Shown in pieces: positions 15,324 through 51,900 of a stretch of 52,741 nt of DNA (the first letter of the stretch is position 1; each line of letters starts with the position of its first letter). This stretch comes from Nanobdellati archaeon (lineage in GTDB: Archaea; Nanobdellota; Nanobdellia; Woesearchaeales; JAADFO01): the NCBI GenBank assembly GCA_013152815.1, contig JAADFO010000048.1, forward strand, positions 1 to 52,741, given 5' to 3'. Both the position numbers and the translations under genes were made by a program. The notes beneath the pieces are model-generated. The model was given only the letters and a program-made list of their open reading frames with translations, had not been told where the DNA came from and searched no databases.

Positions 15324-15345
15324 TTAAAAACTATATATTCCTTTC
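15324..15345. promoter_or_regulatory. TATA-like element in the divergent promoter region between the PAS gene and the second KaiC-like gene
   Basis: TAAAAACTATATATTCCTTTCT can be read as BRE+TATA on either strand. Confidence 0.4.
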
Positions 15346-15508
15346 TGCAAGAGAGGGATAAACACAGCCGCAACAGACATCACTCTCCTCCAATACTCAC
15401 AAAAGAATAAATAGCCGGCCAAGAACAGGAGACTAGCAACATGAGATAGTGCTGCATACCTGCCGGATACCCAAGGGGGACCGACAAGCAGTTCAGACAA
15501 GGCATACT

Positions 15509-16801: not shown

Positions 16802-16946
16802 AAACGAACGCGCTCTCCCAAAAAGAAGGTTCAGGGCCAGAGAAGCGAAAGTTTATCCCGTTTCGTCAGATGTTTACCCCGTTTTTCTTCGTAACATGAA
16901 CAGATATTTAAGGTTACACCATCTAGGAGAGTAAGGTGCGTAAGTG

Positions 16947-23510: not shown

Positions 23511-23685
23511 GGGCAAGCGGAGGAAACAGAAGCGGCACAAAAGGCGCAGGACATCGGTCATGATGACGCTCAAAGGCAGCGAGGTCCTCGAGAAGATACC
23601 GCGGTTGGGCGGGAACAGCGGCCGGGTCTATGTCCCCAAATCATGGATCGGCAAGAAGGTCAAGGTGGTGCTGCTCGATGAATAG
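23509..23685 (+). CDS. DUF2080-like small AbrB-fold DNA-binding protein (58 aa, absent from the ORF track)
   Basis: Hand translation: MGKRRKQKRHKRRRTSVMMTLKGSEVLEKIPRLGGNSGRVYVPKSWIGKKVKVVLLDE*. GNSGRVYVPKSWIGKKVKVV is the DUF2080 signature. Confidence 0.85.
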   Translation: MGKRRKQKRHKRRRTSVMMTLKGSEVLEKIPRLGGNSGRVYVPKSWIGKKVKVVLLDE

Positions 23686-23707
23686 GACGACCATGAATAG
23701 GACGACC
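23678..23707 (+). repeat. 15-bp tandem duplication (ATGAATAGGACGACC x2) at a stop/start junction
   Basis: Encodes MNRTT-MNRTT. The first copy contains the TAG stop of the DUF2080-like gene. Confidence 0.9.
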
Positions 23708-27301: not shown

Positions 27302-27367
27302 AGTCCATAAATCCCTGATTTCCTGATTAAGCACACCCAGACCAGCTCTGGCAGTTGATATTTGTGC

Positions 27368-27997
27368 ATGAAGAGCAAAGACATCAACGAAACCCCTGAA
27401 GCGACGTCAAAAACGACAAAAATGAGGGATAGTGAGAGACAAAAGAGTGAGGTTTCCCGTAGCGTCAGCATCCAGCAGCCGATGACGAATGAAGCGAATG
27501 GACCGCTCCATCTCCTTCTTGACCTTCTTGAAAAGAAGCATCACATCAGCTACAGCGAACTCATCACCCTCCTTCAGAAGAGACAGGAAGAACAGCTGAA
27601 GGGGCGTGTCCCTGCAAGACTCTTCGCAGACCGGAAGCTGGGCGTTCTCGAGATCCTGGTACGATACCTGAAAGACCACCGGCAGATGTCCTTCAAAGAG
27701 ATCGGAAAGATCATCCAGAGGGACAACAGGACCATCTGGGCGTCTTACCATAACGCCTGTCAGAAGCGACAGAAGATGCAGCTTCCAAAAAAGCCGCAGA
27801 TCTACATACCGCTCGTATCGTTCGCTGACCGAAGGCTCGGACCTGCAGAGAACGTCATCTATCATCTCCATGCCAAGGAACAGATTCCCTTCTCCAGGAT
27901 CGCAGAACTTCTCAGACGTGATCCCCGGACAGTCTGGACAGCATTTGCCCATGCAAAAAAGAAAATGAACAGCAGAGAGGATGCCGATGCTGCATAG
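27368..27997 (+). CDS. Tandem helix-turn-helix DNA-binding protein
   Basis: Internal duplication: VPARLFADRKLGVLEILVRYL...SFKEIGKIIQRDNRTIWASY and IPLVSFADRRLGPAENVIYHL...PFSRIAELLRRDPRTVWTAF. Start uncertain. Overlaps the giant gene start. Confidence 0.8.
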   Translation: MKSKDINETPEATSKTTKMRDSERQKSEVSRSVSIQQPMTNEANGPLHLLLDLLEKKHHISYSELITLLQKRQEEQLKGRVPARLFADRKLGVLEILVRYLKDHRQMSFKEIGKIIQRDNRTIWASYHNACQKRQKMQLPKKPQIYIPLVSFADRRLGPAENVIYHLHAKEQIPFSRIAELLRRDPRTVWTAFAHAKKKMNSREDADAA

Positions 27998-30900
27998 AAA
28001 GATACGCAGTCGGATAAGCAGCCTGAAGAGACCGCAGTCTTTGCTGCTGCTGGCGCTTATCATACTGTCAGGCATCTCGGTCTACACCACCATGACCGGG
28101 GCGATCAACTATCCTCCGAACGATTCTCTGGCGACCATCCTGCCCAACAACAGCGACCTGCCCGTCCTAGCGCTCCTGAACCAGAGCGATGGCGGAAAGA
28201 AGAACATCCCAGAGAAGAACAGCGAAGGAAACCAGAACCTGAACAGCAATGCATCCACAGCACCCCTCCAGCAGGAACCGTCTCAAGAACCGTCCATCAC
28301 CATCACCCAACAGGATGCCCAGATAGGGAGGCCTGTCAGATGGGAAATGCGTATCGAGAATATCGGGAATCCGGCAGGTCCTTCAGGAGATACAGGACCC
28401 TCGGAGGATACGACACCTATCCTGCTGCCGATCCCGCCGGATGCAGAGAACATCACGCTCCTTGAAGGAAGCAACGTGACGATGAGCCAGGGAAACAGTA
28501 CAGACAACGTCTCTGTTGCATCCGGCAAGGCTGCCCAAGGAAGACAGCAGGTGAGCGTCCGGATGGACAAGGGAGAACAGGCCATCATCAGCTACCAGAC
28601 TCCCGCACCTTACATCAGCGAGAAAGATGTCCGTGAAGATGGTGCCCTGAAGAAGGAGATCATCATAGGATCCGACGCGAGCGTCCATTATTCCAACGTC
28701 CATGTCCAGACAGAGCTCATCAATGCCACCCAGGAAAGCGTCCGTCTTTACCATCAGGAAACGATGCCCGATGCCAGGGGAGAGGACATCACCAGAATGG
28801 TGGAGGTCACCGAAGACCCCGCATATCTCCTGACCTTCCTCGACCTTGACCAGGACGGAAAATACGACCAGATAGACTGGGTCGTCCCCCGGCTCAGCGA
28901 ACAACATTTCCTTCTGGTCCAGCGGCTCAACGGAAATTCCCCGAGCATAAGGCTCTACAGGGAACAGGCATCGGGGATAGGCACGAACAACCAGATGACA
29001 GTCACGCTCGTGCTGCATAACAACAACAGCGTGAACATCAGCAATCTGGCGATCACCGAGAGCGTGCCTTCCGGATGGACTCCCTTCAACCTGCCGAACG
29101 GCACCAACATGACCTTTGACATGGCAAACAACAGAACCCTGCTTTCCTTTTTCCTCGATCTTTCCGCAGACAGGACCAGACCCCTCATCTATGACGTCTC
29201 CTCACCTCCCTCTGAAGGGACAGGACTGTTCATCGCCACCGCAGGAGGCAGGACCATCGCAAGCCAGCTTGTCGAGGTAAACAGCAGCCGCGCCTTCTTC
29301 GAGACCATCCTGACCTTAGAGCAGCAGAACGATACCAACAACGCTGATAACCGCACCGGTGGGAACACGACCAACACCTCTGCCAGCAGCCCCGCCCAAA
29401 CATCCACCTACCGGACCATCGACAACGAACATCTCTATCCGCTTCACTTCAAGGTCATCAACAGGGGAGCATCCCAGAACCGCTATCCGACATTCTTCTA
29501 CTGGATCCACAACAGCTCAAAATGGCAGGTCCAGAGACGCCTGATGGAAGGGTCGTGCCCTGGAGCGTCTGTCGTTCCCTACCGGGATAAGAAGGCGCTC
29601 AGATGCATCTGGCAGACGTTCCCTGCAGGTACCAGCAAGGAATTTACCATATGGATCAGCGGAAAACAGCCAGTTTCAGAAGAGCTCATGCTGCTCAACA
29701 TCACCTATGACCCCCCAACATACCAAGACGGCGATGATGCCGAGACCGATAAGGGACAAACAGACAAGACAGACAGAGGGAACATCATAGGACGAGCAAT
29801 CAGGTCCATCTTCAGCATCATCAGACAAGGATTCGTCGATATCATCGGATACATCACCGATCTGTTCAAGGGCAACAGCACGGGCAACAGGCAGCAAGGC
29901 ATCACCGGACGGATCGTCGGAACCGCCCCTCAGGGGACAGCACAGGGTTCTCTTCCCGCGCAGACCAACGGCAACGCCGACCAGAACAACAATCCGGCGA
30001 CCTTTCCCGAAAACGGCGGAAGCGGCGTACTGCCAAGCGGCAATCCGATCATACCGATACAGAATCCGTCCGGGACCACCCTTCCCACACAGAATGCCGC
30101 GCTCCCCTCTGGACCGGTCCCCTTCCGACAGCAGCCCATCGATAACAGCATCGGCCCCACCGGTGGTCGTGGACCCGGAGAACCCATCGGAGGACCTGGA
30201 CCCGCACCACAAAGACCGCCAAGACTTCAGAAGATCTGGTACTCCACCACCCAGCAGGTTTACCTGAGGACACGACCATGGGCAGCACCGCCGCAGGGAG
30301 AACCCCCCATCATGCTGACGTTGCGGGATGCATCACGCAGGATCATACCACGAAGGATACTCCGGGCCATACCCGTCGGTCCAGAACAGTACGACCTGGA
30401 GATAGAGCTCGGCATGAAACAACTCAGGAATATCCAGTTCAAGGACATCCACATCAAGGCGAACCAGAGCCTGGACCTGGGCATCGAGGAACTGGAGAAG
30501 AACAACACTCCGCGCATAGGCTTCCAGAGCGCCATCAGCGGCTTTGCCATAGATCCCACAAGGTTGAACTTCACCAACGCAAGCTTCACCTTCGTCGCCT
30601 CAGGAAACGTCCTCTACAAATGCGTCGCCTGGAACTTCACCGAACAGACCTGCGAAGGGAACTGGAAAAAATATCAGGACATTGTTCCGGGAAAGGAATA
30701 CACGATCCTGTTCACCCCGGACGATCCGGGATATGCAGAGACAGGAGTGGCATCCATCAACACGAAAAAGCCGATATATCATCCCAACGAGACCGCAGAG
30801 ATCATCATGGTGGTATTGGACAGGGAAGGACACCTGGCAGAAGGAGCGAACGTCACGCTCAACATCACCCTGCCTAACGGCACGGTCTCCACCCGCACTA

Positions 30901-33900
30901 CCGGAACAGGACAGGGGTCTGGACAGGGCGCAGGAGAAGGGCTCATCACCGAGACCAGCAGAGGCATCTACCGGACCAACTTCACGCAGACGGACCTGGA
31001 AGGAAACTACTCGCTCGATGTCAGCGCCGTCGGAACGGGAGTGAACAACAGCATGCATTCTTTCTTCTCCGTCAGAGCATTCTACGAGTTCGACATCCTC
31101 AGGGACATGCCGGTCACCATGGACCCCTGGAGAGGCCCCTACACGGCAAAGGTGACCATCAGCTCCTACATCAACGTGACCAGCTTCGACTTCACCGAGG
31201 TCATCCCGGGGAACTTCTCGATCAACGATGCAGGAGGAGCAGAGGTGAGCCAGGCAAACGGCTCCTGGCATCTCTTCTGGAAAGGCCTCAGCGACGGCGC
31301 TCACATAAGCTACCGGGCACGGCCGCCGCTCTACAGCCCGGACCTCTATGAGATAGGACCTTCTTTTGTAGATTATGTCTTTGGAAACCAGAGCAGGACC
31401 TTTGAGGAAGCACGACCGTGGTACCTGGCCGTCGACCCTGAACAAGGTCTCTGTGCACCAAACTGTCCGACCCACGTGAAGGCAGAGACCGGCACCATCT
31501 ATCTCTCGGGAACCACCAACACGGCAAGCCTGACCAACTCCTACAACATCAGCAAGGCATTCATCATCAGACGTTACGCCATGTACATCAGCGACGCGAC
31601 GCAAGAACCCGACGGGGGAACGGCGACCATACGATGGTCCAACTGCAACGGTGACATCTGCGACCAGCTCACCGCCACAAGGATAGCAGGCGATGCAGAG
31701 GATGCCATCGTCTCCTATTCCATCCTCCAGGCAGAGAACATCAGGACCTGGAACTTCAGCATCAGCTGGGCAACCGGACAGAACACCGCGACCTTTGACC
31801 CGAACCCTGACCTTCCGGCAGACTGGTCCTCCAAATGCTTCGTCAACGTCTACCGGGCAACGAGGATAAGCTCGGCCACGGTCAGCGATTTCGCCGAGGC
31901 AGAGGTACGGAGCAACATCACAGCAGCGAACAACATCGACTTCGGCAGGGACGGAGAGGATGGAGGAAGTCCTGCGGCAGGCACCACCTACGGGGAAGTA
32001 ATCTGCTTCCGTGACACGACGGCGGTCCAGCAGATCAACTTTGCCATGGGCGAATCAGAACCGCATACCGACAATGTTCCCATCAGTTCGGTGAATGTCT
32101 CCAACAGCTGGGAGATCCACAATCATCGACAGCCGGACGACGGCGTCGGACAGAATTCGGTACTGGGCAACATCACCAGCCCCACCAACCTTCAGCTCTA
32201 CTATGCAGAGACCGGACAGACCGCAGCAGGAGACCAGCCCCAGCTCACCGCCTACATCATCGAACACGAGGCCGACAAGGGAGCGAGGGTCAGGAACGTG
32301 AGGATAAGTCCCGGCATTACCGACCAGAACATCACCACCACCATCAGCCCGCCGGTGACCGACCTCAACAATACCTTGCTCAGCTGCTACAACAGCATGG
32401 CAGCAGGAGGAGGGACCGCCCACACGAGGGATTACTGGGCCAACCGGTTCGTGGATGCAAGCACCATCAACAGCATCAACTACCGCACCCGCGCAACCGG
32501 CCAGACCAGCCTCATCAACTGCTACATCGTGGAATGGCCGACAACCACCAGCCTCGAGCTCGGTGAGGCACCGCCCAACACCACGCTCGTCCAGCCCGCG
32601 GACAATGCACTGCTGAACAGCAGGAACATCAACTTCACCTTCAACGTCAGCACGGATGACAGGATCATCAACTGCTCGCTCTACACCAATGCGACAGGAA
32701 GTTTCCTCCTCACCCAGAAGAACCAGACAGCCATCGTCAACGGCACCATCAACGGCATCAACCACACGTTCTCCCAGGACGCCACCCTGTCCTGGAACGT
32801 GGAATGCAGAGACCTGAGCAGCGCCGCATTCTCCTCAACAAACAGGACCCTCACCATGGATGCTACGCCCCCCTCCTTCCCGCTCATCCAGATAGGACCT
32901 GATCCCGCTGAATACGGCAGAGAGAACGTCTCAGTGAACTGGACAGCAAGCGACATAAGGTTCAACAGCACCTGGGCCAACGTAAGCTATCCCAACGGGA
33001 CCACCCTGGCCGTCTTCCTGCAGAACTTCACCCTCACGGCCGCTAATCTCAGTGTCATAGGGAACTTCAGCATCATCATCTACGCGAACGACAGCCTGGG
33101 CAACACGAACAGCAGCACCAACGTCCTGATCGTTCAGGACAGCCTTGCCCCGAACATCACCTTGTTCCTGCCAGTGAACGCGAGCTTCGACAATGATGGA
33201 AACATCAACTTCACCTATAATGTCAGCGATGTCTCTCCGATCGCGAACTGCAGCCTCTTCTTCGGCAGCACACGGGTAGACACCAACAACAGCATCAACC
33301 CGGATATCACCCAGCAGTTCGTCCGGACAAACCTTGCAGCAGTCACCTATGACTGGAACGTCTCCTGCTATGACGGACAGGGGAACCCCGGCAGCTCAGA
33401 TGTGTGGAGCGTGACAGTTGACAAGACCAGCCCGACAATAGCCCTGCACCAGCCGGACGACGGGGCATGGAGCGACACATCCCAGGTGCAGATGAACTAC
33501 ACCCCCAGCGATGCCTATCTGGAGAGCTGCAGGCTCTGGGCCAACTTCTCCGGAACCTGGATGGTCAACCAGACCAACAGCAGCCCTGCTTCAGGAGCGG
33601 CCAACCGCTTCCAGCCGCTCATCCTCAATGACGGAAGCTATCTCTGGAACGTGGAATGCAACGATTCGGCAGGAAACACCCAGTCTGGAGCTGCCAACCG
33701 GAGCCTGCATGTGGATGCAGGCAAACCAACGGTCCAGTTCGTCTTTCCCACGCCGCAGAACAACAGCAACCTGAGCGTGAACTCGGTCGTCATCAACATC
33801 TCCCACAACGAGGCCAACCCGGACACGCTCATCCTGTCCTGGAACGGCAGCAACCAGTCAAGACCCTACGCAGGAAGCTACACCAACATCACCGAAAGTC

Positions 33901-36900
33901 CGCTCGATGACGGAACCTACCGGTTCTTTGCGGTCGTCAACGACAGCTCCAACAACATCAACCAGACCGAGACGAGACTCGTCCGGATCGACACGAAAAG
34001 TCCGATCCTCACCCTGCTAGGACCAGAGAACGACAGCTGGCAGACATCCTCGCTCACCCGGTTCTTCTACAACACGAGCGATGCCTTCCTCGGCGTCATG
34101 AACTGCAGCCTGTACGCAGACGGAATCCTCAACCATACCAACACGAGCATCGAAGAAGGGATATCGCAGAACTTCAGCGTCTCTTTCGCTTCAGGCAACC
34201 ACAACTGGAGCGTCCGTTGCGAGGACAGGACCAGCAACCAGAACCAGACCGAGACCCGCATCCTCAAGACCGACCTGACCTTCCCCCAGATGAACGGAGA
34301 GCAGGTCAACGGAACCAGCTTCACCATCAACAGCCGCATCTGTCTCAATGTCACCGTGACCGATACCTATTCAGGAACAAGCCAGGTACTTGCCCAGATC
34401 GACCATCCTCAGAGCGGTCTTGTCAACATCAGCCTCTCCAACGCCACAGGAGGCTGCGGCAACGCAGGAGGAGACGTCTATAGCACCGCGCTCCTCAACG
34501 ACGAGGCAGGCCAATACAACTGGACCCTGACCTTTGCTCAGGATAACGCCGGCAACATCCAGACAAGCATACCGTCAAGCCCACTCGAGTGGAACGTCTC
34601 TGCGAACAACAACATGGAATCAGCCATGCTCAGTCCTGTCAGCAACAGGCTATTGAATGAATCCGAGACTGCAACCAACTATTCCATCTCCCAGACCTGC
34701 CAGGCATCATGCACAGCAGGAAACTGCATCGATGTGGAACTCACTCCCCAGTTCCATAACAGCACCTGGAATGACATCACATCGACAACCGGACAGCTGA
34801 ACAACCCGAACGGCACAATATCCTGCGGAAACCTCACCGGCAACCCTGACGCCTGGTGGAACTCCTCCTGGAACCATCGGGAACCCATCAACCTGTCGGT
34901 GCCGAGCGGATCGACCCCGCAGGATTTCCAGGTACAGCTCATCCTGAACAGCACCACCGTCGGCAGCGGCTTCAACTGGAGCAGGAGCTGTGCAGACATG
35001 AGATTCATCAACATCAGCAGCAACACGGTCATCAGCCATTTCATATCTTCCTGCAGCCAGACAGACCAGAATGCCTCTGTCTGGATCAAGGTGCCGGGAA
35101 GCATCACCACCAACGCATACATGATCTATATGTACTACGACAACCCGGATGCCGCCTCGACATCGAACGGGACAGCCACCTTTGAATTCTTCGATGACTT
35201 CAGCGGTGACCTCAGCAAATGGGATGTCCGTGACCCTGACATCTCCATCATCTCCGGCTATCTCGAGATCGCAGGAGGAAGCACCAGCTCACCCTACGGC
35301 CATGCGGTCCTCGGCTCCAACACCACCTACACCGGTTTCCAGGACGGCATCATCGAGATGGACCTCTACCTCACCACCAATTCCATCGCAGAGATAGGCA
35401 TGCGGGGCGACCCGGCAGCCAACACAGGCTACAAAGGACGATTCGACGCAAGAAGCGGCCAGGGCATGAGCTATCTCAAGCCGCCCTACGCAGGATGGGG
35501 TTTCTGGACCGGCAGCGGCCCTGACGGCAACGCAGTCCCCACCGGCAGCTGGATACCCATAAGACTCCAGGTCAACAGCACCTCTTTCCGGAGCTGGAGG
35601 GGCACCACAAGCTTCACCTCCAGCCCAGACAGCCAATACACCGGCCCGGGAGAGATATCGCTCCAGAACCACTACGGAACCTATTCCCGGTTCGACAATG
35701 TCCGGGTCAGGAAGTACAGCGCCGCAGAACCCGCAAGCAGCACAGGCGGGGAGGAGACCTATGTGGGGGCGAGCAACATCACCACCTGCAACGCGACCTT
35801 CACCATCATCAGCGGGAAGCATGCAGGGAACAACACCTGGCCCATCCGCTGCATCGCCAGATCCCAAAGCGCACCCAACGCCTACAGCAACGGACAAAAC
35901 CTCACCATCAACGACCATCCCACCGCAGGCATCAGCCAACCCCTCGACAGCACCTGGCTGGACGGGGAATTCCTGCTCAACGCATCGGCCAGCAGCGACG
36001 ATCGAGGGATAAGAAGATATCTTTTCACGCTCGCCAACGACAGCAGCTTCGACAACAGCCAGACCATCTGCGACAGCCTCAACACCATCGCTCCGACAAC
36101 CCCTGAGAACGTCACCTTCTCGGGCAGCTATGGCTATGCTGCAGGGACACAGACCGAGGCAGCAGCAGACGATAACAATTATGTCTTTGTCGGAGACAAC
36201 GCGACAGGGACCTTCACCGCCTACAGCAGCATCAGATACAACATGAGCAGACTGGGCATCAACAGCTCCCGGGTACGCGGGCTCATCTACTCGGTGCGGT
36301 ACTGCCATAGCAGGGACGACTATCCCAACGTCGGCTGCAATGGGAACAGCGCCACCGGAACACCCCAGGGGACACAGGACGTACAGGCGTACAACTACTC
36401 AGGAGGACAGTGGGTCACCCTGGGAGTGCTGCGGACCGACGACAACGGAAATGAACGGACGGACAGCTATCAGGTCAACGGCACCCTCGCCGATTTTGTC
36501 AATGAGACAAGCAATGAGACCTGGATTCGTTACACCATCGACTATCTCAATTTTGTCGACCTTGACGTCAGCTATTTAGTCATCGACCAGGCCATGCTCA
36601 ACATCACCTATGACACCCAGAGCGCCTCCTGCATCTTCAACAGCACCAAGGGAGGGACATGTCCAGAGGAGACGCTCAGCTGCGCCCTCCGTCTCAATGT
36701 GACCGACAATGAAGGACTGAAGAACAGCACCTGGATAACGGTCGGCATCGACAATACCGCCCCTCAGGTCAACCTCACCGATCCGGCGCAGGACGAGATA
36801 CTGACCGGTTCTTCGACGGTCGTGAATGCCACCGCCACCGATGCAGGAAGCGGCATCGATACGGTCTCTTTCCGCTACCGTGCCAATGATACCGATACCT

Positions 36901-39900
36901 GGAAGGACATCTGCGCAGATACAGACCAGAGTCCCCCCTTCAGCTGCGTCTGGGACCTGACCGGGCTCGACGACGGGAACACCTACCAGGTCAGGGTATC
37001 TGCAAATGACACGGTAGGGAATCCCAGCATCAACGACACCAACGTCAACATCACCATCTCCAGGCCCATGAGCATCCTGCTGCTCTCTCCTGACAACCTG
37101 AGCTGGAGCCTCAACCCTGTGGCCTTCCACTACAATGTAAGCCACCCTACCGCAACCGTCACCAACTGCAGCCTCATCCTGGACAACCAGGCCAACCAGA
37201 CCGACCAGACCATCAGCCAGGGGATCGATTCGGTGTTCACCGTCGAAAACATGACCGACGGAAACCATGGCTGGCTGGTCAATTGCACGGACAATATAGG
37301 AAAGGTCTCCGGTTCGGAAGGACGCATCATCAGGATAGACAACAGCTCGCCTTCGCTGAGCATCGACCAACCCATCTCCTACGAGAACATCTCGACAGCA
37401 AGTTTCCTGGTCAATGCGTCGGTGGACGACGGAACCGGCATCGGCATCAACACGACAACCTTTGAATATCGGGAGAATGATACTGCAAGCTGGAGCCTTA
37501 TCTGCCTTGACACGACCGGTCCTGATTACAGCTGCGGCTGGGATACGGGCAGCCTCAGCGAGGGCAAGACCTATGAGGTGAGAGCATGGGCCAACGACAG
37601 CCTGGGAAACACCGGTCCCGTGGACAGCAGCACCAACATCACGCTGGATCGCACGCCTCCTGCGCTGGAACTTCTGGGACCGGAGAACAGCACGCACAAC
37701 ATCAACGGCAGCATCATCTTCACCTACAACGTGAGCGATGCCCTGCTTGGAGTCGCCAACTGCAGCCTGCTGATCAACGAAAGCGTCAATCTCACAGACA
37801 CGAGCATCACCGAAGGAAGCGTCCAGAGCTTCCAGCAACAGTTCGTCAATGCATCCTACCGGTGGGCCGTCCGGTGCAGCGATACCGAAGGCAACAGCAA
37901 CACCAGCGGAACCCGGCTGCTGCTCGTCGCTCCGGACACCGAGGGACCGGCCATCACGTTGCTCTCACCTGCCAATCCGGCCACCGACAGTGACGGAGAC
38001 GTGACGTTCGGATATTCTGTCATCGACGCGCTCTCGGCCATCGCCAACTGCAGCCTCACCCTCAACGGGACGCTCCAGAACACAACAAATGCCCCTGCCC
38101 AGAGCCAGACCAACAGCTTCGTCGTCAACAACCTCAACGACGGGCTCTACTTCTGGAACATCACCTGCACGGACAATGCCACTATCCATAACAGCAACAC
38201 CAGCGAGACGCGGAACCTCACCATCTCCATCATCTCCATCCTCAATGTCTCGGTAACCACGGACAAGGCCAGCTATGAACAGGGCGAATACGCCAACGTG
38301 ACGACCAACAGCACCGATTCCTTCGGCAACCCCATCAACGCAAGCATCTTCACCGACATCCATCGGGGCAACGGCACGACACCCTGGTGGAACTCGAGCT
38401 GGCCCTACCGGACCCAGATCAGTGTGACGGAACAGACCGGCCAGGACCTCCTGGACTACCAGCTGAACCTCACCGTGGACACCAAGACCCTCATAGATGC
38501 GTCCAAGATGAACGCCAACTGCACGGATATGCGTTTTGCCGACGGTCTCACCAATCCGCTCTCCCACTGGATCGAATACGGCTGCAACACTACCTCGACC
38601 AGAGTCTGGGTCAAGGTCAACCTCACTGGAGGGAGCACCAGCACGCTTTCCATGTACTATGGCAATACCTCGGCAGCAAACACCAGCAATGCTTCCTCGA
38701 CGCTGAGACTGGTCGGTCAGGCAGGGATCCTCGAGGTCGACGGCAGCACCCAGAACATCACCCTGAACCATCCGCTGACCAATCCACGGGTCCTGGCCGT
38801 CCCGTTCCTCCAGACCGGCGCCTCACGGTTCGGCAGCGTCACCACCCAGCACCACATGATCACCAACGTGCAGTCCTCTGGGTTCTCCATCACCCAGGTC
38901 GAATCACCCACCGCAGGAGACAGCACCATCGACCTCGGCAACGTCTCCTACGTCGTGCTCGAGAACGGCACCTACTACCTGGGCCTGGGCATGCTCGTCG
39001 AAGTAGGCAGCACCACCTCTGACGGGACCTATGTGACCGTCACCTTCGGCCAGAGCTACAGCACCGATCCCTCGGTGCTCGCCGACACCCAGACCAACAA
39101 TGCAGGATCCAACCAGCTCTACGCAAGAGGCAACCTGCTCACAACGACGAACATCGCGCTGCAGGCAGAGACCGACGACGCAGCCACCCCCAGCCTCTCT
39201 CCGGCAGAGACCCTGGGCTACGGTGTCCTGCCCATCGGCACCGAACCCTACAACCAGATAGAGACCTACACCACAGGAGCGGTGACCGATGAAGTGTGGG
39301 ATTCCTATACGTTCGCCTACACCTACGGGACACTTCCGGCAGTGATCGCCTCCATCAACGACGAGTCAGGAACACAACCCTGCTATGCGGTCACCCGCCA
39401 GGTGACCACCACCGGATTCCAGCTGGCCTGCGAAGAGCCCGCACCCTATGATGGGAGCCATGCCAATGAAGTGGCATCCTGGGCGGTCTTCCCCTCAGGA
39501 GAGATCTACGGCAGGAAATATGCGAGCACCGAACCCAGCTACACCATACAGCAGGAGGACATGCTTGTGGGGACCAACACGAGCGACGCAGGGGACGACG
39601 GGCTCTGGACCTGGCCCTGGAGCACCTATAACATACCTGTCGGGAACTACACGGCAGCCTCCCTGGCATCACGTCAGAGCTACGCAGATGCGACAGGCCA
39701 TAGCTATTTTGAGATCATCCCCGATACCACGTTACCGAGCATTGCGCTCCTGAGCCCGTCCAACGAGAGCTGGACCGTCTCATCGACGCGCCTCTTCACC
39801 TACCTTCCCGTCGACAACAGCCACCATTTCCAGAACTGTTCGCTCATCTTCGATGATGCCATCAACCAGACCAACCAGAGCATACAGGAAGGAAGCAGCA

Positions 39901-42900
39901 ACGTCTTCAACATCACCGGAATCGGTCAGGGCAGCCATCAATGGTCGGTCAACTGCACCGACGCAGCAGGAAACAGCAACCGGTCAGAGACACGCATCCT
40001 CACCAGAGACAGCACCGCCCCCACCATCACCATCCACCATCCGCGCATCGGAGCGAACCTCTCGAGCAGCACCGCCCTCTTCAATTTCACCGCCGACGAC
40101 AACCTGGACGCATCCCTCAGCTGCAACATCACCCTCGACGGGAGCATGACCGCAGACAGCCCGCTTCCTGCCCCGAACGGCGTACCGACCAACACCAGCG
40201 TCCTGGGGCTCTCCGACGGGATCCATCGATGGAACATCAGTTGCCTTGATAACGCCTCCAACAACGCATTCAACGGCACCTACCTGTTCATCACCGATAC
40301 GCTTGCACCACAGACAGCCCTCCTGTCTCCCCCTGACCAGTCCTGGGATGATGACGGGCTTGTCCGGTTCAACTATTCTGCGACCGACAATCATCTCCGG
40401 CAATGTGAGCTCTGGGGAAATTTCTCAGGCAGCTGGGCAAAGAACCAGACCGACCTTGTTCCAGAGAACGACACCCCCCATAACTTTAGCCTGGTGACCC
40501 TGGAAGACGGCGATTACCGATGGAACGTCAACTGCAGCGACTATGCAGGCAACAGTGCCTTCAACCTCACCAACTACACGATCCACATCGATAGGACAAC
40601 ACCAGGAATAACATATGCCTACCCTACACCTGCCAACGATACCAACACGACCCAGACGACCATCATCATCAATGTCACACACCAGGAGAACAACCCGGCC
40701 AGCATAGCGTTCTACTGGAACGATAGCCTCAATGCCTCAAGAAGCTACGCGGCCGGAACCGGACAATACACCAATTTCACCCTGACAGGAGCAGAGGACG
40801 GAAGCTACCGGTATCTGGTGAGACTCAATGACTCGGCCGGACACCAGAACGAGACCAAGAACAGGACGATCACCATCGACACCCATCCTCCGCTCACCAG
40901 CATCATCGGACCGGCCGACCAGAGCTGGCGCAACATCGCCACGGCAGACACCACGTTCTTCTACAACACCACCGATACGGTCCTGACGGTCGCCAACTGC
41001 AGTCTCATCCTCGATAACCAGATCAACCAGACCAACCGAAGCATCACAGAAGGGGCAATCCAGAACTTCAGCGCGACCTTCAGCAGCGGAACCTACAGCT
41101 GGAACATCAGTTGTGAGGACACGCTGCAGAACCAGAACAGCACTCCCACCAGAATCCTGCAGGTGGACCTCACCATGCCCTCTGCCACGAAGGAAGCCAT
41201 CAACGCCACGGCATTCGGGGTCAACGAGTATATCTGTCTCAATCTCAGCGCTGCTGACACCCTGTCGGGGGTCAGCACGATCTATACCCAGGTGGACTAC
41301 CCAGTGAGCGGACCCATCAACATCAGCCTTTCCAACGCTACCGGAGGATGCGGCAACGGAGGAGGAGCTGTCTGGAGCGTCTCCCTCCAGAACGTCGAGA
41401 GCGGCCAATACAACTGGACCATGACCTATGTCATCGACACGGCAGGGAACATCAACGGTACCTATCCGCAGACCCTGCTCAACTGGTCTGCCACGACCCT
41501 CATCGAGATGAACGCGACCATGATCCGACCGACGGTCAACACCGAGATCAACGAATCTGGACAGCACAACAGCTTTGTGCAGACCTGCTCGGCCAACTGC
41601 ACAAGTGGGATCTGCAGAGATACGACGCTGCAACCACAGTATGACAACGGGACCTGGCAGGACATCACGACCCTGAACACCCAGCTGAGCAGCTCCCTCG
41701 ACAGCTACGACTGCGGCAACCTTACCGCCCCGGACACACTCTGGTGGAACCTTTCCTGGAAGAAGAAACAGGCCATCAACCTCAGCGTCAGTTCCGGAGC
41801 AACGCCCGAAGGGTATCAGATCCATCTCATCCTGAATGCGTCCAATGCAGGGACAGGATTCAACTGGAGCAGGAATTGCACAGACATCAGGATCATCAAT
41901 GCAAGCGAGGACGCAGAACTTCCCCATTGGACAGAGAGCTGCAATGCCACGACCCAGAACGCTTCCCTATGGGTGAAGGTGGATACCAACATCACCACGA
42001 TCATCAGCAGTATCTATCTTTACTATGACAACCCGGCAGCGACATCGACATCGAACGGGACAGCCACCTTTGAATTCTTCGACCAGGGAGACCAGATTGC
42101 CGACTGGACCACCAGCGGTACCGCAGGCCAGAGCGTTTCTGTCGGCAGGCCACAGCCCAGCTACTACGCGACATCGGTCAACGGCAACTATATGTACCAG
42201 GATGTCACGCTGGTTCCCGACCGGATCATCGAATGGGATTTCCGCTCCGATGGCCTGGGCAACTTCTACTATCTGGTGAACGCCGCAGGGTCTGGCCAGC
42301 ATTTCCGTCTGGAGACCCGAAGCGGCAATTCAGCAGGATTGGGCGCGGCCAGTTCGTGGACCTCCTGGTCGGTACCGACCCAGACCTGCGGCAATCTCGC
42401 CACAAACACCTGGTACGGGTTCAGGCTGGTCATAGGGTCGAGCACAGCGCAGGGGTATGTCGACGGGAACGCATGCGGCGGCGCCTACACCTTCTCAGAC
42501 AACGGAGGATTCATAGGCCTGGTGGGCGACGGTCTCGGCTCAGGATTCACCACCTGGATGGACAATCTCAGGATCAGGAAATACCACACGCCGGAACCCA
42601 CCTATGCCATCAGCGAAGAGCAGATAGGCGAAGGAATAAACAACAACAGCTACTGCTCGGCCAACTTCACCATCACCGCCGGAAGCGACTCAGGAAACCA
42701 GAGCTGGCCGATCCGTTGCACCGCAACATCGACGACAGCACCCATAGACTATTCGGGAACCGTCAACATCACCATCAATGACCATCCTCGGGCATCGTTT
42801 TTGAGCCCGCTGGACGGCCAATGGCTCAGAGGAACGGTCATCCTCAACGGCTCTACCTCCTCTGACAGCGACGGGACCATCGACAACTACCGTTTCCAGC

Positions 42901-45900
42901 TGGACAACCTGACCAGCTTCGCCTCCCCAAGCACACTCTGTGACAGCAATGAAAGCAACTGCACCCTCGACACCCAAAGCCAGACCCAGTGCCAGGACGA
43001 GAGCCAGACCTGCTACCTGAAACTGCAGGTCACCGACGACAACCAGCTCACCAACAGCACGACCATCACCATCGGCATCGACAATACCGGACCTCTCACG
43101 TCGCTTGACCTTCCGCAGAACGGGACGAACATCACGAGCGACAGCTTCTTCATCAACGCCAGCGTACAGGACCAGGGGATCGGAGTGAACACCTCCACGT
43201 TCGAGTACCGTGAGAACGACACGGCAAGCTGGAAGCTCATCTGCCATGACAGCAGGGCGCCCACCTATAACTGCAACTGGGACCTGACCGCCCTGGAAGA
43301 CGGGACGACCTATGAGGTGAGAGCATGGGCCAACGACAGCCTGGGAAACACAGGGACAGCAAGCCTCCACAGCAACATCACCATCGATAGGGGGAAGCCC
43401 AACATCTCCCTGGAATCCCCTGCCAACATGACCTGGCACCTGGAGAACATCACCTTCCTCTACAATGTGAGCGAAGGCATCTCCGGCATCATCAACTGCT
43501 CACTGCTCCTTGACGGGACCATCAACAGCACCGACACCTCGATCAGCACAGGAATCTCCCAGCAGTTCGATGTCACCTATCTTGCCGACGGCAACCACAG
43601 CTGGGCAGTGCAATGCTACGACGGAAACGACAACCTCGGAACCTCTGCAAGCAGGATAGCCCGGATCGACATGACCGGCCCGGACACCATCCTCGACAGG
43701 CCACAGAACTTCACCAACATCTCTGCGACGCTGTATCTCATCAATGCGACACCGAGCGACGGTGCAGGCATCGGCGTCAACGGCACCACCTTCGAGTATA
43801 GGCAGAACCAATCCGCGTCCTGGGTCAAGATCTGCACCGACAAGAGACCCCCGAAATATACCTGCAGCTGGGACACCTCGGTGCTCAACGAGGCCCGGAC
43901 CTATGAGGTGAGAGCATGGGCCAACGACAGCCTCGGCAATATCGGCGCAGCAGACCTGCATCAGAACATCACCATAGACTACCATGGACCGGGCATCATA
44001 CTCATGTCTCCAGAGAACGACAGTCAGGATGTTGATGGCAGCATCAGCTTCAACTACACTGTCCAGGACACCTTCCTGAGCATCATCAACTGCAGTATGC
44101 TCATCAACGGCAGCATCAACAAGACCGCGACAGGCATCACCGAAGGAAGTGTCCAGAGCTTCCAGCAGAACCTTCCCAACGGCACCTATGACTGGAGCAT
44201 CAAGTGCTATGACACTGCCCAGAACAGCAATGTCAGCCTGACACGCAGAGTCGTCGTCGCGCCGGACAGCGAACCCCCCCGGATCAGAATCCTATCGCCC
44301 GCGCCGGGCGCGGTCGATTCAGACGGCAACGTGCTCTTCACCTACAATGTGAGCGACACGCTCTCTGCTGTGGCCAACTGCAGCCTCACCCTCAACGGGA
44401 CCGTCAACAAGACGACGTTCTCTCCCACAGAGAATGCCATCAACACGTTCACCGTGACAGACATGAATGATGGGCTCTACTACTGGAACATCACCTGCAC
44501 CGACCTGGCAGCATCTCCCAACCAGAACACCACGGAGACCAGAAACCTCACGGTGACGCTCCTGCCTGACATGGTCGTGACCCTCTCGACCGACCAGACC
44601 GCCTATGAACAGGGTGAATATGCCAACATCACGACCAACACCACCGATTCCTTCACCAATCCGCTCAACACCACGGTCACCACATACATCATCCCCAACA
44701 ACACATGGTACAATCCTGCTTACCGTTATCGCCGGGCCATCAACATCACCGAACAGTCAGGAAAGAACCTCACCGAATATCAGATCAACCTGACCATAGA
44801 CACCGCGAGCCTCATCGTCGCGGAAAAACTGAGGAACGACTGCAACGACATACGGTTCACCAACGCATCCCATCAGGACATGCCCTATTACATCGAGAAT
44901 TCTTCATCGTTGGGATGCGACCAGACAAGCACGCTGGTATGGGTCCAGGTCCCCTTCCTCAGGGATCAGGAAACGACGACCATCTATATGTACTATGACA
45001 ATCCTGACGAGACCGACAGCAAGAGCGACAAGTGGGAGGTGTTCAACTATTCCACACCGACAGCGACCGCCTATGTCGTATCTGAACTCCTCGCGTCCCA
45101 TGACAGCTTTGATCTCGTGAGCTTCCGGGACAGCAACAGGATCATCGTCGGAGCGAGCGATACGGTCCAGAACCTTTCTGACACGGTCCAATACACCGGA
45201 ATCCTCAACTACACCAACGTCTCTGCCACGCAGCCATTCTTCGGAGCAGGCAATGAACAGGCAACAGACGGGGGAGGAGAAGATGCCCTGGCACCCATAG
45301 GCTTCGCCGCGAAACAGTTCATCTACCTCGACCGCATCGGCTCCTACTATGACCGCTATTACATCTATTCGCCGTTTGGAGATGCCACGGTGGAACTCTT
45401 CGAGGGCAACGATGGAGCATTGCCTCTGACCAGTGTCGCCGGACCCATCACCGTCGCTAAGGGGACGGTCGGCGTATTGACGGCGAGCGTCATAAGCACC
45501 GATGAAGCAAACTTCCTCAACGCCAGCATTCCCGTAGTTGTTGCCCATGATATGACCACCGGCGTCTATGATGCCTACATCCTCCACCCGCCCGACACAG
45601 ACTGGTGGGGAGTCCCGGGGACCTGGGTGCTCATAGCAGCCCTGGAGGACAACACCAACATCCAGATCCTGGAGAACAACGGCAGCAACAGGACCATGAC
45701 CCTCAACGCATTCCAGGACTACTCCTACCAGGACGGCGCAGCGAGCCAGGGAACAGGAAACGCTTATCACATCATCGCCGACAAGCCCATCGCCGCACTC
45801 CAGAATGCCGACGGCGATGGAGGAGAGACGACGACCTTCCTGCCGGAGAAAGAGCTGGACAACGAATACTTCATCCCCCACGGCTACGATTACCTGACCA

Positions 45901-48900
45901 TAGCAACGACCCAGCCCAACACCAACTGCACCCGCTATGACAATACGGGAGCAAAGATCGACAGCCAGCTCTCCACCAATACCTATGGGTACCCTTTCCC
46001 CAACAAGATCCTCTTCGGCGCCCGGACCACCTCATCGGGAGACCATCTGGTCTGCGACAGTCCTGTCTATGCCTACTATGAATACACCGGCGTCAGCGGC
46101 GGCGGCGATGAGCACAACCTCTGGAGCCTCAAGGCCAACCGCCAATACCAGTATCCCTCACCGACGCTCTCTTTCGATGCAGAGACCGCGCCAGGACTCT
46201 CTAACCAGAGCGTCACCGGGCTTGACGGCATCTGGACCTGGGTGTGGGATACCCTGCTCCAGGCGACCGGCAACTATTCCATCATCTCCTACGCGACCAA
46301 TCCATCCTATAACGAAGGAAGGGACTTCACCAACATAACCATCGCTGTGGACAGCACCGCACCGAATATTGCCCTGGTCTCTCCGGACAACCGATCCTTC
46401 TCCGGCGCCTCTGCCCTATTGAGCTATATCCCGACAGACAATGGGCATCGGTTCAGGAACTGCAGCCTCATCCTGGACAATCAGGTCAACCAGACCAACA
46501 ACACTGCGCTCATCGATGCCAGAGAGGAGAATTTCACGGTATCGGGACTGGCCGAGGCCAGCCATCTCTGGCAGGTGAACTGCACCGACCTCGCAGGCAA
46601 CAGCAACGGTTCTGTGACCTATACGCTCATCACCGACCTGACACCGCCGGCCATCACGCCCATCGCTCCCGGGCAGGACACCAACATCTCCAGCTCCACG
46701 GTCCTGTTCAACTTCAGCGTCCAGGACAACCTCCAGCCGTGGCTGCTCTGCAACCTCACGGTCGACGGGACCGTGAGGAACAACATACCAATCAACGTGA
46801 GCAACGGCAGCAACGGGAACATGACGATAACCAGCCTCGGAGACGGACAGCACATCTGGAATGTCACCTGCTGGGACAGCACCGATAACGTAAACACCAG
46901 CATCGCCAGGAACTTCAGTGTCGATACCCTGGCACCGACCGTCGGCCTGGCCGCACCCACCAACGGTTCCTGGAGCGACACGGCCACCATACAGTTCAAC
47001 ATCTCTCCCTCAGACGACAACCTGAAGCTCTGCGAGCTCTGGGGGAATTTCTCAGGCACCTGGGCGAAGAACCAGACACTCGACGCCCCGGTCAACGGAA
47101 GCATCAACAGCTTCCAGCCGCTCATCCTCAATGACGGAAGCTATATCTGGAACGCCAACTGCTCAGACTATGCAGGGAACGCCGCATTCAACCAGAGCAA
47201 CAGCACCTTTGTCATCGATACGCAGGAACCGTCGGTCTCCTTCATCTTCCCCACTCCACAGAACGACACCAACCAGAGCATCAATACGCTCACCCTCAAT
47301 ATCAGCCACAACGAACTCCATCCAGAGGTCCTCAGGGTCATACGCAACGGGACCGAGGAATATCAGGCAGCCTATGAAGGGAGCTACTCCAACCTTACCT
47401 TGACAGGATTAGCAGACGGCACCCATAGCTATTACGCCTGGGTGAACGACAGCGCAGGCAACAGCAACCAGACCCTCATCAGGACGATCCACATAGACAC
47501 CCATGCACCCACCCTGCTCCTGCTCTCACCTGCCAACGACAGCTGGCGGAACAACGCGACCGCCAATACGGCATTCATCTACCAGACGGCAGATGATGTG
47601 CTGACGGTGAAGAACTGCACCCTCTTCATCGACCAGCAGGCGAATGCTTCCGACAACAGCGTAGAAGAAGGGACTGCAGAGAACTTCACCCTCCGCCTGC
47701 AGAGCGGTTCCTACAACTGGAGCATCAGCTGCACCGATACGGTCGGCAACGCCAACAACAGCGAGACACGGCTCATCAAGGCGGATACTTTCTTCCCGAC
47801 CATCGCCAACGAGAGCATCAATGACAGTCTTCTCAACATCACCCAGTATATCTGCTTCAATGCCACCATCGACGACAACCTCTCGGGCATCGACCAGGTC
47901 TCCATCAGCATCCTCGACCCTGACCTCACGACCCAGACGGTCACCCTCTCAGACAGCGCCACCACCAGCTGCGACCAGACCAATGGGGATCACACCTACT
48001 CTGCAGAATGGGAGATCCAGAAACCGGGAGCCTACAACTGGACGACGACGCAGGTGAACGACACCGCAGGCAACCTGCAGACAAGCTCTCCCGGACTGCT
48101 CTTCAACGGCACCAGCATCGCCAGCCTCACGGTGAACCTCACCGCTCCTTTGGGGACCCTGGAAATCAACGAGTCAGGCCCGGCAAACGACTTCACGCTC
48201 AACTGTTCGACCACCTGCGACGACAGCCCGGAGAACTGCAGTTTTGTCCGGCTCTTCGCCGTCTACAACGAGACGCTGGCAGGGACAGACATCTCCACGG
48301 TCACCACCGACCTGGTGAACGACGTCAACGGCTTCTTCTGCGGCGACCTTGTCCCGCTCGAGAGCTGCAACGCAAGCTTCCATATCACCGCCGGACAGGA
48401 CTCAGGCAACAGAGAATGGCAGACCTGGTGCCGGGCAGACTCCTCCAACGCCGGAAACTACCGGTCTGATGGGATCCTCAACCTCACCATCAACGATGCC
48501 CCTCTCGCCAACCTCTCTTCGCCGGCAGAGGGTGCATGGCTCAAAGGGACCGTCATCCTCAACGGCTCGACCTCCTCCGACTCGGACGGCACCGTCAGCA
48601 GATATGTCTTCCAATTGGACAACCTGACGACCTTCAGCTCTCCCACCACCCTCTGCGACACCACCGACGGCAACTGTACCCTCGACACCCAAAGCCAGAC
48701 CCAATGCCAGGACGAGAGCCAGGAATGTTACGTCCTGCTTAAGGTCTATGATGACAATGACCTTTCCAACAGCACCATCATCACCATCGGCATCGACAAC
48801 AGCGGACCGGTCCTGAGCATCAGCCAACCGGTCAACGGCACCAACATCACCCAGGACAGCTACACGCTGAGCGCGGGCGTCACGGATACGGGGATAGGCA

Positions 48901-51900
48901 TCAACAGCACGCAATTCTTCTACCGCCAGAACAGCTCCGGCAGTTTCGCCCTTGCCTGTACCGACGTAGACGGGACAGCTCCCTATTCCTGCAGCTGGAA
49001 CGTCTCAAGCCTGGTCGACCTGACGACCTATGAAGTACGAGCATGGGCCAACGACAGCCTGGGAAACATCGGAGCCAACGACACCCGGTCCAACATCACC
49101 ATCGACAGGATGCCTCCCCGGATCAACCTCTCGGGACCGGCAAACGACACCTGGCATCATGAGAACATCACCTTCAACTACACCACTGCAGACGTCACCG
49201 TGGGGGTCATCAACTGCAGCCTGCTCCTCGACGGGACCATCAACAGCACCGACACCTCCATCGCTGAAGGCAGCCTCCAGGCATTCGCGGTGAACGGAAT
49301 CGGCGACGGTGCCCACGACTGGGCGATCCGATGCTATGACAGCGTAGGGAACCATAATGTCAGCAGGTCCAGGACCGTCCATGTCGACACCACCGGACCC
49401 ACCACCCTTCTCGACAGCCCGAGCGGTTTCGCAAACCTCTCCTCCAGCCCTGTCGTCGCCAACGCTGCCGTGAACGACGGTCCTGGCATCGGCGTCAATG
49501 CCACCTCATTCTGGTACCGGCAGAACCAGACCGCGAGCTGGAACATCATCTGCGTCGACGGAGTCCCCCCGACCTACCTCTGCATGTGGGACATCAGCAG
49601 CCTCGCCGAGGGCAAGACCTACGAGGTGAGAGCCTATGCGAACGACAGCCTGGGAAACATCGGAGCCAACGACACCCACCAGAACATCACCATCGACAGG
49701 ACCCCACCGACCGTGCTTCTGGAGAGCCCTGCCAACGACAGCCAGGACACCGACGGAGACGTGCTTTTCACCTATAATGTCTCTGACGCGCTCTCCACCA
49801 TCAGCTCCTGCGACCTCATCATAGACGACAGCATCAACCTCACCAATACCAGCATCACGAAAGACACCACGCTCAGCTTCAGCCAGACCTTCGCCACCCG
49901 CAATCTGAACTGGAGCGTCAACTGCACCGATGCTGCAGGAAATATCGGAGGCGCTCTCACCTATGTACTCAACGTCTCTCCAGACACGAAACCTCCCGTG
50001 GTCACCCTGCTCGGTCCGGCGAACCAATCCACCTACACCAACGAGAATGTGGTGTTCCGATACAATGTGACGAGCGACATCTCAGGCATCGACAACTGCA
50101 GCATCCTGCTTGACGGGACCATCAACCAGACCGATACCAGCGTCGTGGCAGACAGCACCCAATCATTCACCATCACGGGGGTGAACGACGGCAACTACAC
50201 CTGGAGCGTCCAATGCTATGACGGGGCAGCCATCCCGAACATGGGAATCGGCGGCACCTTCAACCTGACCGTCAGGAAGACCTCGAGCATCATCGTCAAC
50301 GTAAGCACATCTGCCCTCATCTACCAGCTCGGTGAGCTGGTGCCCATCCTCACCAACACCACCGACGAGTTCAGGAATCCCCTCGATACCGACGTGAACA
50401 CGAGCATCCGCCTCAATGACAGCTCCTGGTGGGACCAGCGATGGTGGTGGCGACGTGCCATCAACATCACCGAGACCAGCGGAACCTCCTTTGCGGGCTA
50501 CCAGACAAGGATCAGCCTGGACACCCAGACACCGATTGCGGGCCAGAAGATGAACACCGACTGCAGCGACCTCCGGTTCGTGAACAACGAGAGCAAGACA
50601 ATGGCTTACTGGATCGCCTCTGGCTGCAACACCACCACCACGGACATCTGGTTGCGGGTCAACCTGACCGCCAGCCAGACCACCCCGCTCCATGCGTATT
50701 ATGGATATCCTGAAGCGACAGCAATGAGCAACCAGACCTCGGTCTTCGACATCGTAGGAGAGGCTCACATCCTCTCTGTCGGGGGGACTGCACGGACCAT
50801 ACATCTGAATCATACATATCAGCGACCGAGGGTCTTCGCCGTGCCCAGACTGCCGGCAGGAACCTCCCGGAGCGGAACGGTCACGAGCCAGCATCATCTG
50901 ATCACCAACGTGACCGCAGCCAACTTCTCCATCGTCCAGGTCGAATCACCGACGGCAGGGGATGCCACCATCGATCAGACCGACATCTCGCTCATCGTCC
51001 TTGAGAACGGCACCTATTATCTCGGAACAGGTACGCAGGTGGAAGTAGGCACCACCAGTTCGACCGGAGCCTATACAACGGTGACGTTCGCATCGGGCTT
51101 CTCGAGCATCCCTGCCCTGCTTGCGGACACCCAGACCAACGATGCCGGCTCGAGCCAGATCTATGCCCGGGCCCAGGCACTGGGCAGCGCCTCGGTGCAG
51201 CTGCAGCCCGAGAGCGATGATGTCAGCACACCCAGCCTGTCTTCCCCGGAGACCATAGCCTACGCTGCCATCGTCAAACAGACCGATAGCCTGTTCCATC
51301 TGGAAGCCAACACCACAGCAGACTATGTCACCGATGCCTACAGCACCATAAGCTACGATGAGACCTACCAGGACTTCCCGGTCGTGGTCACGCAGATGGT
51401 CGACGAGGGCGGAGGGGACTCGTCCTTCTCGACCACAAGAAACATCGGTCTGACGACCTTCCAGGTGTCGAGCGAAGAGACAGCAGCCTTCAATGGAGGC
51501 CATACGACTGAACCGCACAGTTACCTCATCGCGCCGGAAGGAGCGATCCTCGGAAGGGCGGACCTGGCATCCTCCGCACCAACCCAGACCACAGGAGGCG
51601 AAGAAGGAGATGCGCCCACCACCTCGACCAATACGACCGGGACAGACGGCCATTGGACCTGGTCATGGAACACCCTCAACGAGTCTGTGGGAAACTACAG
51701 CATCCGGTCCTACGCCACGGCCGCATTGTATGATCCAGGAGCAGGATACCATAGCATCACCCTGGTGCCGGACACCACCCCGCCCAGGATGAGCATTGTC
51801 CTGCCCGGCAACAATACCTTCACCCAGGCGAACCTGAGCCTGCAGTACCTGCCGGTGGAGAACGGGCTCATCATAGAGAACTGCACCCTCACCCTGGACG

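Follow-up and report, generated by a model that had tools for sequence, protein, structure and literature searches.

The stretch of DNA analysed here (the window; 52,741 nucleotides (nt), contig JAADFO010000048.1 of assembly GCA_013152815.1, positions 1 to 52,741) comes from a Nanobdellati archaeon of the order Woesearchaeales and contains one giant open reading frame (ORF). The genome that contains the window (its contig is C48 below) has 1.49 Mb, is 90.8% complete, and its small-subunit rRNA match is archaeal. The giant ORF occupies 27981..52739 of the plus strand, as do all of its features given below; it is stop-free to the end of the window, where it is open at the 3′ end, and encodes 8,253 amino acids (aa; partial) with 126 cysteines (Cys). 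Judged from the frame and from alignments, it is built of three super-repeats and consists mostly of immunoglobulin (Ig)-like stalk domains (Pfam Big_13, Big_7 and Big_3_3). Super-repeats 1–3 share 42–44% protein identity in pairwise global alignments, and their DNA is mostly 65–72% identical over stretches of at least 150 nt. The sole hydrophobic segment (aa 21–39; 28041..28097) lies behind a basic N terminus and, from its sequence, is likely a signal peptide or signal anchor of Sec type. We counted 443 NxS/T sequons; the protein is likely a secreted, glycosylated stalk that is displayed on the surface of this small-genome archaeon. Comparison of the repeats of this gene, and of 17 genomes, shows the same loops of the stalk both filled and empty, and module families that recur in different loops.

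Three host domains, A, B and C, recur in each super-repeat, each with one slot. Host A of repeat 1 has an N-terminal half (34599..34838) that ends in a first clamp Cys, C2282 (34824), and a C-terminal half (35775..35912) with the second, C2603 (35787), 963 nt away. Between them lies the first slot A insert (34839..35774), a cassette of a DUF2341 adapter with a PF10102 match (34848–35183), a ConA/CBM66-like payload (35184–35717) and a returning strand (35718–35765). Host A of repeat 2 (41493..42779) is also filled (insert 41727–42644; C4578 (41712) to C4892 (42654), 942 nt), and that of repeat 3 (48111..48494) is empty, with C6787 (48339) and C6796 (48366) only 27 nt apart. Slot B is filled in repeat 1, where the halves of the PKD-like host B (35913..36071 and 36630..36758) enclose a 186-aa all-β module with an invariant Cys pair and no adapter (36072..36629; C2697 (36069) to C2884 (36630), 561 nt). 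Host B is empty in repeat 2 (42780..43088) and repeat 3 (48495..48803), where C4987 (42939) and C6892 (48654) each have their partner Cys 21 nt away. Host C, which is MG2-like, is filled in all three repeats. In repeat 1 its halves (38238..38366 and 39573..39719) flank an adapter, about three H-type-lectin-like repeats and a returning strand (38367..39572); in repeat 2 (44559..46352) the insert (44691–46202) combines the adapter with a different payload of ~370 aa, and in repeat 3 (50274..51773) the insert (50409–51623) again carries an H-lectin-like payload behind the adapter.

A first, sequence-only reading of the window had noticed the unequal Cys spacings, had placed DUF2341-like units at 38385, 44706 and 50427 in slot C, and had described a DUF2341-like plus ConA-like cassette in slot A. 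The spacings hold in every repeat, the three positions are the WW/WY starts of DUF2341-like units, and the cassette is borne out by the PF10102 match and by a model of the repeat 1 payload that resembles CBM66. The slot flanks, whose failure to align had been set beforehand as a refuting test, do align across the super-repeats, and large gaps open at the slots: the alignment of repeats 1 and 3 leaves aa 2287–2598 (312 residues) and aa 2703–2873 (171 residues) unaligned. Two things had been missed, namely the likely role of DUF2341 as a split adapter around the payload and the existence of further slots.

The most direct evidence that modules sit in loops comes from slot C. A structure model of aa 3415–3917 (predicted local distance difference test (pLDDT) 93.4, predicted template modelling score (pTM) 0.87), built on an input alignment in which just 3 of 48 rows cover both host halves, has as its best fold match the MG2 domain of human α2-macroglobulin (2p9r_B, 97 aa; Z = 12.8, root mean square deviation (rmsd) 1.8 Å, 94 aligned residues), which spans model residues 6..499. 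Nearly all 50 rows listed in this fold search are matches of ~80–104 residues that join both ends of the model. Because the MG2 match spans both ends, the two ends would make one domain around the insert, and we are confident, on the basis of the model, that the slot C flanks are a single MG2-like domain with ~400 residues inserted. Loop insertion, proposed by the sequence-only reading over an end-to-end chain of domains, therefore stands for slot C, with 94 of the 97 MG2 residues matched. Its suggestion that the motif GxWTWxWxT closes the cassette does not: the protein has exactly three copies (39600, 46227 and 51648), and they sit in the C-terminal half of host C, downstream of the point at which the chain re-enters the host. 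Slot C was filled in 23 of 23 hosts, with 279–505 residues between the half-profiles. Foldseek returned no PDB match for the slot C model at E ≤0.001, and one unnamed protein in BFVD (E = 3e-12 over 297 columns). The fold of the slot C host is that of MG2 in α2-macroglobulin and complement C3–C5, but here MG2 is one stalk domain: a single MG2 match was the only macroglobulin part found by Pfam in 15 window fragments, with no full ring of MG domains, bait region or thioester domain as in the α2-macroglobulin family. An uninterrupted MG2-like domain (aa 928–1005; 30762..30995) lies upstream of the slots; it matches PF01835 at E = 1.6e-7 (32.1 bits; curated cut-off 32.8) and is a distant relative of host C by profile match (N-half E = 1.2e-4, C-half E = 0.005).

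To follow hosts A and B across genomes, we used the empty repeat 3 as query, which matched 30 of 401 genomes of the order, 20 of them strongly, and compared regions from 19 strong relatives and 1 of the 10 weak ones. Half-domain profiles identified 30 complete host A+B pairs in 17 genomes, with A filled in 4 and B in 3; outside this count stand G094, in which slot A is followed by an adapter before the contig ends, and G045 and G008, which have host B only, empty. The slot B Cys pair is kept in 30 of 30 copies, with a spacing of 7 residues in all 27 empty ones; the slot A pair is present in 24 of 26 empty copies, 9–12 residues apart. In a phylum-wide sample the host pair was matched in 28 of 341 genomes, with strong matches confined to the order. 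A scan of the collection with a single protein found no relative, and a search of longer proteins (420–2000 aa only) gave 2 matches among 7,999 candidates.

From their sequences, the halves of host A and of host B are each predicted to close into one Ig-like domain, less directly than for slot C, and a disulfide between the flanking Cys is predicted to close both slots, so that the stalk would be the same with or without an insert. Alternatively, slots A and B could be linkers between two small domains, with cassettes arranged end to end and only slot C truly split. This would fit the lack of a fold match across the halves of host A or B and the presence of the same modules in line elsewhere, and the host A halves passed a two-chain prediction only weakly (score 0.57 versus 0.00 for the best control, with at least 90% contact agreement between runs and partner pLDDT of at least 69). 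Among solved pairs, 116 of 157 attained the mark used, as did 2 of 215 mismatched ones; scores at or below 0.60 within it include 18 of the 157 and both mismatches. However, the C-terminal halves of hosts A and B are merely 43–46 aa, about three strands, the Cys pair lies 7–12 residues apart in empty copies, the PF22352 PKD-like profile runs over the empty slot B of repeat 2 (E = 6e-4, under the cut-off), and host A is a contiguous unit of 111–117 aa in five other giant proteins (L163–L167). We consider the linker arrangement improbable. Loop insertion is supported for slot C by the fold match; for slots A and B it is predicted from contiguous copies that lack an insert, from the profiles and, weakly, from the two-chain run on host A.

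The inserts of slots A and C in the window share the adapter. DUF2341 (PF10102) has five matches in the window (52.9–75.9 bits; cut-off 23.4), each at the start of an insert; ~110 residues of DUF2341 are followed by the payload and then by a short strand with an R/K-Y..EP..G-EE-like motif. In its strict form this motif, which was partly derived from these same sequences, follows 23 of 64 adapters compared with 3 of 145 control windows. Both the slot C model and the A+B model place a strand between the end of the payload and the resumption of the host. DUF2341 is therefore likely a split domain, with its main part before the payload and its last strand after it, which would bring both ends of the cassette together and fit them to a loop. 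The adapters of A1 and A2 (the slot A cassettes of repeats 1 and 2) are 57% identical, and their payloads have no BLAST match to each other. Such a concrete structural role for DUF2341 as a payload carrier is likely new relative to the literature searched.

The payloads are varied. In the model, payload A1 is a self-contained ConA-like fold (residues 198–375 match CBM66 4b1m; Z = 17.5, rmsd 2.4, 153 aligned). The catalytic motif of GH16 enzymes is E-x-D-x(x)-E; we rejected an enzymatic role of this type for payload A because the motif is absent from A1 and A2. The slot C payloads include a ConA-like family (11 copies), MAM (2), Laminin_G_3 (1), the H-lectin-like triple repeat, the slot B module and singletons, and several match no recognised family. 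PF09458 was found in 10 of 14 members of the H-lectin-like family (best E = 3e-9; window copy 22 bits versus a cut-off of 24), and the match to snail agglutinin reached only E = 0.56. Payload C2 (slot C of repeat 2) has a weak Atlas lead, IgGFc_binding, on 16% of the members of one cluster. PDB sequence searches gave no match for cassette A1 and one chance-level match for C2. We obtained 35 payload clusters among 66 adapters, a number that overstates diversity (167 residues, strict cut-off), as the splitting off of L151, which carries the H-lectin-like payload, illustrates. Sugar binding by the inserts is predicted from these models and family matches.

The same modules recur in different settings. 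The module of slot B is present in 27 of 401 genomes, with weak GH114_assoc matches in 13 of 28 members and Atlas matches to unnamed clusters; a Kelch assignment was rejected, since the profile of the module gave short matches only, which passed on no single stretch. We found the module in five settings: on its own in slot B (3 copies); nested inside a slot C adapter (G188, G068 and, twice, G299); in an ordinary stalk domain of G026, where the Cys spacing is 206 compared with 33–39 in the other copies listed; in the second loop of a sister domain of host A (G083); and in line. Profile comparison (E = 2e-4 and 4e-6) links this sister domain to host A; no insert occupies its second loop in G136, and an adapter fills it in G087, G150 and G334. 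Separately, the slot B module follows an MG-like domain in another conserved giant family (L108, L111, L112, L113, L121, L123, L124), often with a Cys on each side. Slot A holds a payload related to C2 of the window in G094 and a module without adapter in G172; a homologue of the latter stands in line in the window ORF (aa 1158–1515; 31452..32525; 24% over 375 columns, E = 1.6e-19) and has no Pfam or NCBIfam match. We found the H-lectin-like payload in three forms: joined to an adapter, adapter-free in a stalk domain of L138, and in small separate ORFs. Six small, secreted-looking proteins (L132, L135, L136, L140, L145, L155) consist mainly of the H-lectin-like repeat and are possible stand-alone lectins and payload donors.

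These distributions bear on how the slots came to differ. A rival history would have an ancestral repeat filled at every slot, with inserts lost from most descendants and payloads diverged in place. Deletion between two close Cys would be easy, one module family fills all three filled slot B copies, and the trees cannot polarise events. Against this, slot A inserts are unrelated (adapter cassettes versus the adapter-less module of G172), slot C payloads belong to different Pfam families, and one module family sits in unrelated hosts; therefore loss alone is insufficient, although it may explain slot B. We regard a history without swapping as unlikely, and it can partly coexist with exchange. 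The host tree places the filled B copies at three separate positions, two of them adjoining empty copies with good support. Within the window, repeat affinities differ from block to block: host B is 72% identical between repeats 2 and 3 (other pairs 42–55%), and payload C is 47% identical between repeats 1 and 3 (other pairs 22–28%). Occasional recombination, between repeats and between genes, has probably duplicated, exchanged or deleted cassettes and payloads. The sequence-only reading had called the modules interchangeable, and over evolutionary time this is borne out between genomes and between repeats. Ongoing phase variation was set aside because of the DNA divergence between super-repeats, with no near-identical DNA at the slots.

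Several observations weigh against the reading of a stalk with loops that are empty or hold inserted branches. None of the 23 slot C hosts is empty. Of 64 adapters, 41 lack the strict closing motif, all three slot C adapters of the window among them, and the window copies of H-lectin, GH114_assoc, PKD and MG2 all fall below the curated Pfam cut-offs. Two empty host A copies, from one clade, lack both Cys, which may reflect a single event. The model of slots A+B (aa 2205–2926) has a pLDDT of 86.7 and a pTM of 0.52; fold searches with it were taken up by the ConA domain and gave no match for host A, host B, the adapter or the slot B module, so that fold matching does not show the closure of hosts A and B. 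Host and adapter trees are short and mostly unresolved, with few columns in the adapter tree, and gain is therefore not separable from loss. The 65–72% DNA identity of the super-repeats gives no sign of ongoing switching.

We also considered whether collapsed or chimeric repeats could have produced the pattern by misassembly. The gene does run off its contig, and related assemblies break nearby; however, at 42–44% protein identity the repeats are too divergent to be mixed up, the reading frame stays open for 24.7 kb, and filled and empty states recur in other genomes. We judge an artefact extremely improbable. Contig C16 of the same genome opens with a frame that is open at its 5′ end (G000:C16:3-7733, L067; 2,576 aa) and carries a fourth super-repeat, with A and B empty and C filled. 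The end of C48 and C16 have no overlapping sequence. Because G220 aligns in a single stretch with the window tail (residues 1558–1761) and the head of C16 (residues 1799–2025), the C16 frame is probably the tail of the giant protein, which would then comprise ~10,900 aa; few archaeal proteins above 10,000 aa are reported in the part of the literature consulted (bioRxiv 10.1101/2023.11.21.568195). G026 has DNA repeats of 87–91% identity in this region. Three assemblies break at one place in the gene (window 52342–52741, the start of G041:C29 and the end of G137:C12), ~424 residues ahead of the last host A, and the intact relatives G026 and G340 have near-identical tandem Ig repeats there, possibly a length-variable segment. 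The C16 frame ends in a conserved region of ~380 aa that is common to ~10 relatives, lacks a hydrophobic segment and matches no NCBIfam family; a C-terminal anchor was not found in this ORF.

Taken as a whole, we think it probable that the ORF encodes a giant stalk protein with fixed host loops that are empty or filled by branch domains, likely sugar-binding, and that serves attachment. The halves of each host would close around the insert, with predicted disulfides in A and B, and the adapter would hold a lectin-like payload away from the stalk axis, projecting sideways by analogy with known split-domain adhesins. The cell could then grip glycans of a partner, a host cell surface or a matrix at several points along the stalk, and copying, swapping or loss of payloads would change the set of ligands within its grip. 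The branches could instead form a glycosylated coat, spacer or decoy layer that shields the cell from viruses or host defences, with the lectin-like folds being structural; the 443 sequons, the payloads without a recognised family and the missing anchor in the probable tail would suit such a layer, and likeness of fold alone proves no function. Yet the payloads that can be named all have lectin-like or adhesion folds (CBM66/ConA, H-lectin, LamG, MAM), and the contrast of variable payloads with conserved adapters and stalk is what parts used for recognition would show. A coat is accordingly an explanation to which we give little weight. A bolder form of the attachment reading is combinatorial display in woesearchaeal giant surface proteins: several stalk domains, disulfide-closed or split, would serve as sockets for DUF2341 as the universal plug, and recombination would move lectin-like payloads of a common pool from socket to socket, between repeats and between genes; we hold this tentatively, as possible.

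The closest parallels are bacterial. In the portions of the reports available to us, the RTX adhesins AhLap (Aeromonas), FrhA (Vibrio) and MpIBP (Marinomonas) use split Ig-like domains to project ligand-binding domains (PMC12077191, PMC10865825, bioRxiv 10.1101/2025.09.30.679566), and the principle is crystal-backed (PMC12077191). As far as those portions describe them, they share with the giant protein an Ig-like stalk, binding domains that bud from a host loop with their ends side by side, nesting (there with vWFA or CBM as the split domain) and ligand domains that vary between otherwise similar proteins. The giant protein differs in being archaeal, with a hydrophobic N-terminal signal; in branches that recur along the whole stalk, compared with one distal region in the portions seen; in having the same loop both empty and filled, with Cys pairs flanking the slots; and in hosts that include MG2-like and Cys-rich domains, with a recurring DUF2341 adapter that carries payloads. 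Those same portions mention neither archaea nor empty slots. The N-terminal fragment matched no family of the RTX N-terminal retention module in Pfam or NCBIfam. The giant protein works like the RTX split-domain adhesins; it is not an RTX adhesin. We found no report of archaeal split domains in the literature searched, which had subscription journals mostly outside it and no supplements, so one may exist.

Other known systems overlap in part. In the excerpts consulted, DUF2341 occurs in archaeal pilus-associated arCOG03508 proteins (PMC4858521) and in Patescibacteria proteins of >4000 aa (PMC11809585), very large surface proteins with proposed roles in adhesion or host contact, as here; those excerpts give the domain no structural role, whereas here it is likely a split domain that sits in host loops and carries diverse payloads. 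The 16 neighbouring window ORFs matched no pilus family. The SPEARE-type protein SVXNc_0300 of nanohaloarchaea (9,409 aa; PMC10266531) likewise comes from a DPANN archaeon and, in the text accessible to us, has in common a size of ~9–11 thousand residues, a Sec-type signal, a long Ig-like array and proposed host attachment. There, such proteins are described as tandem chains, with a membrane helix and a VirB4-like ATPase at the C terminus; the C16 ORF has no hydrophobic segment or NCBIfam match, a difference that holds if C16 is the tail. DDxP proteins, also large and adhesin-like, grow by insertion and have homologues without the inserted modules, but by tandem addition at a duplicated target motif according to the sections consulted (PMC7730722), compared with loops between host halves here; no duplicated target motif was evident by eye at the slot borders.

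The surroundings of the giant gene include other surface-protein genes. The first frame of the window (2–2140) resembles the tail of a second giant gene on contig C76 (G000:C76:3234-23201; L068, L069), whose upstream part consists of three overlapping frames (3234–10196, 9848–12307 and 11607 to the end) with near-duplicate DUF2341 cassettes, which points to frameshifts or to the collapse of a repeat. A single island of giant surface-protein genes may extend over C76, C48 and C16. Two further giant frames of the genome lie at G000:C30:3971-22600 (6,210 aa) and C5:26240-35278 (3,013 aa, 369 Cys). At 371–2140 and 23630–25639 are two secreted-looking CARDB proteins with closely similar C-terminal sequences, and at 16944–21272 a 1,442-aa protein with an N-terminal hydrophobic stretch, a NEW3 domain, 59 sequons and a Lys/Arg-rich C-terminal tail. 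Among the surface-protein genes of the window lies a signalling cluster (2658–4265, 8066–8653, 9301–16801 and 22830–23357) of two KaiC-like ATPases, V4R, DUF835-like proteins, a Cache histidine kinase and a multi-PAS protein. On the minus strand (4362–7403), a B12-binding radical SAM protein adjoins a methyltransferase fused to a FeeM/GNAT-like N-acyl amino acid synthase domain. A small helix-turn-helix (sigma-70 region 4-like) protein at 27362–27997, the end of which overlaps the start of the giant gene, is a possible regulator. An Rfam scan of the window gave no match, and an NCBIfam scan of nine fragments returned no family.

With this finding, the split-domain principle of bacterial RTX adhesins reaches archaea. 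New here are a natural series of filled and empty states in paralogues and orthologues, several sockets supplied from a common set of modules, and a role for DUF2341 that can be tested; the literature searched, as far as its accessible text goes, leaves the structural role of this domain unexplained. To our knowledge, the hosts of Woesearchaeota are mostly unknown. The variable parts are exactly delimited by empty copies and Cys, giving a short list of domains of 170–400 residues for glycan-array or host-cell screening, and partner specificity thus becomes testable without culture. If combinatorial display proves true, the payload set of a genome would be a readable code of host or partner specificity, and DUF2341 would be a general branching adapter in the surface proteins of DPANN archaea and candidate phyla radiation (CPR) bacteria.

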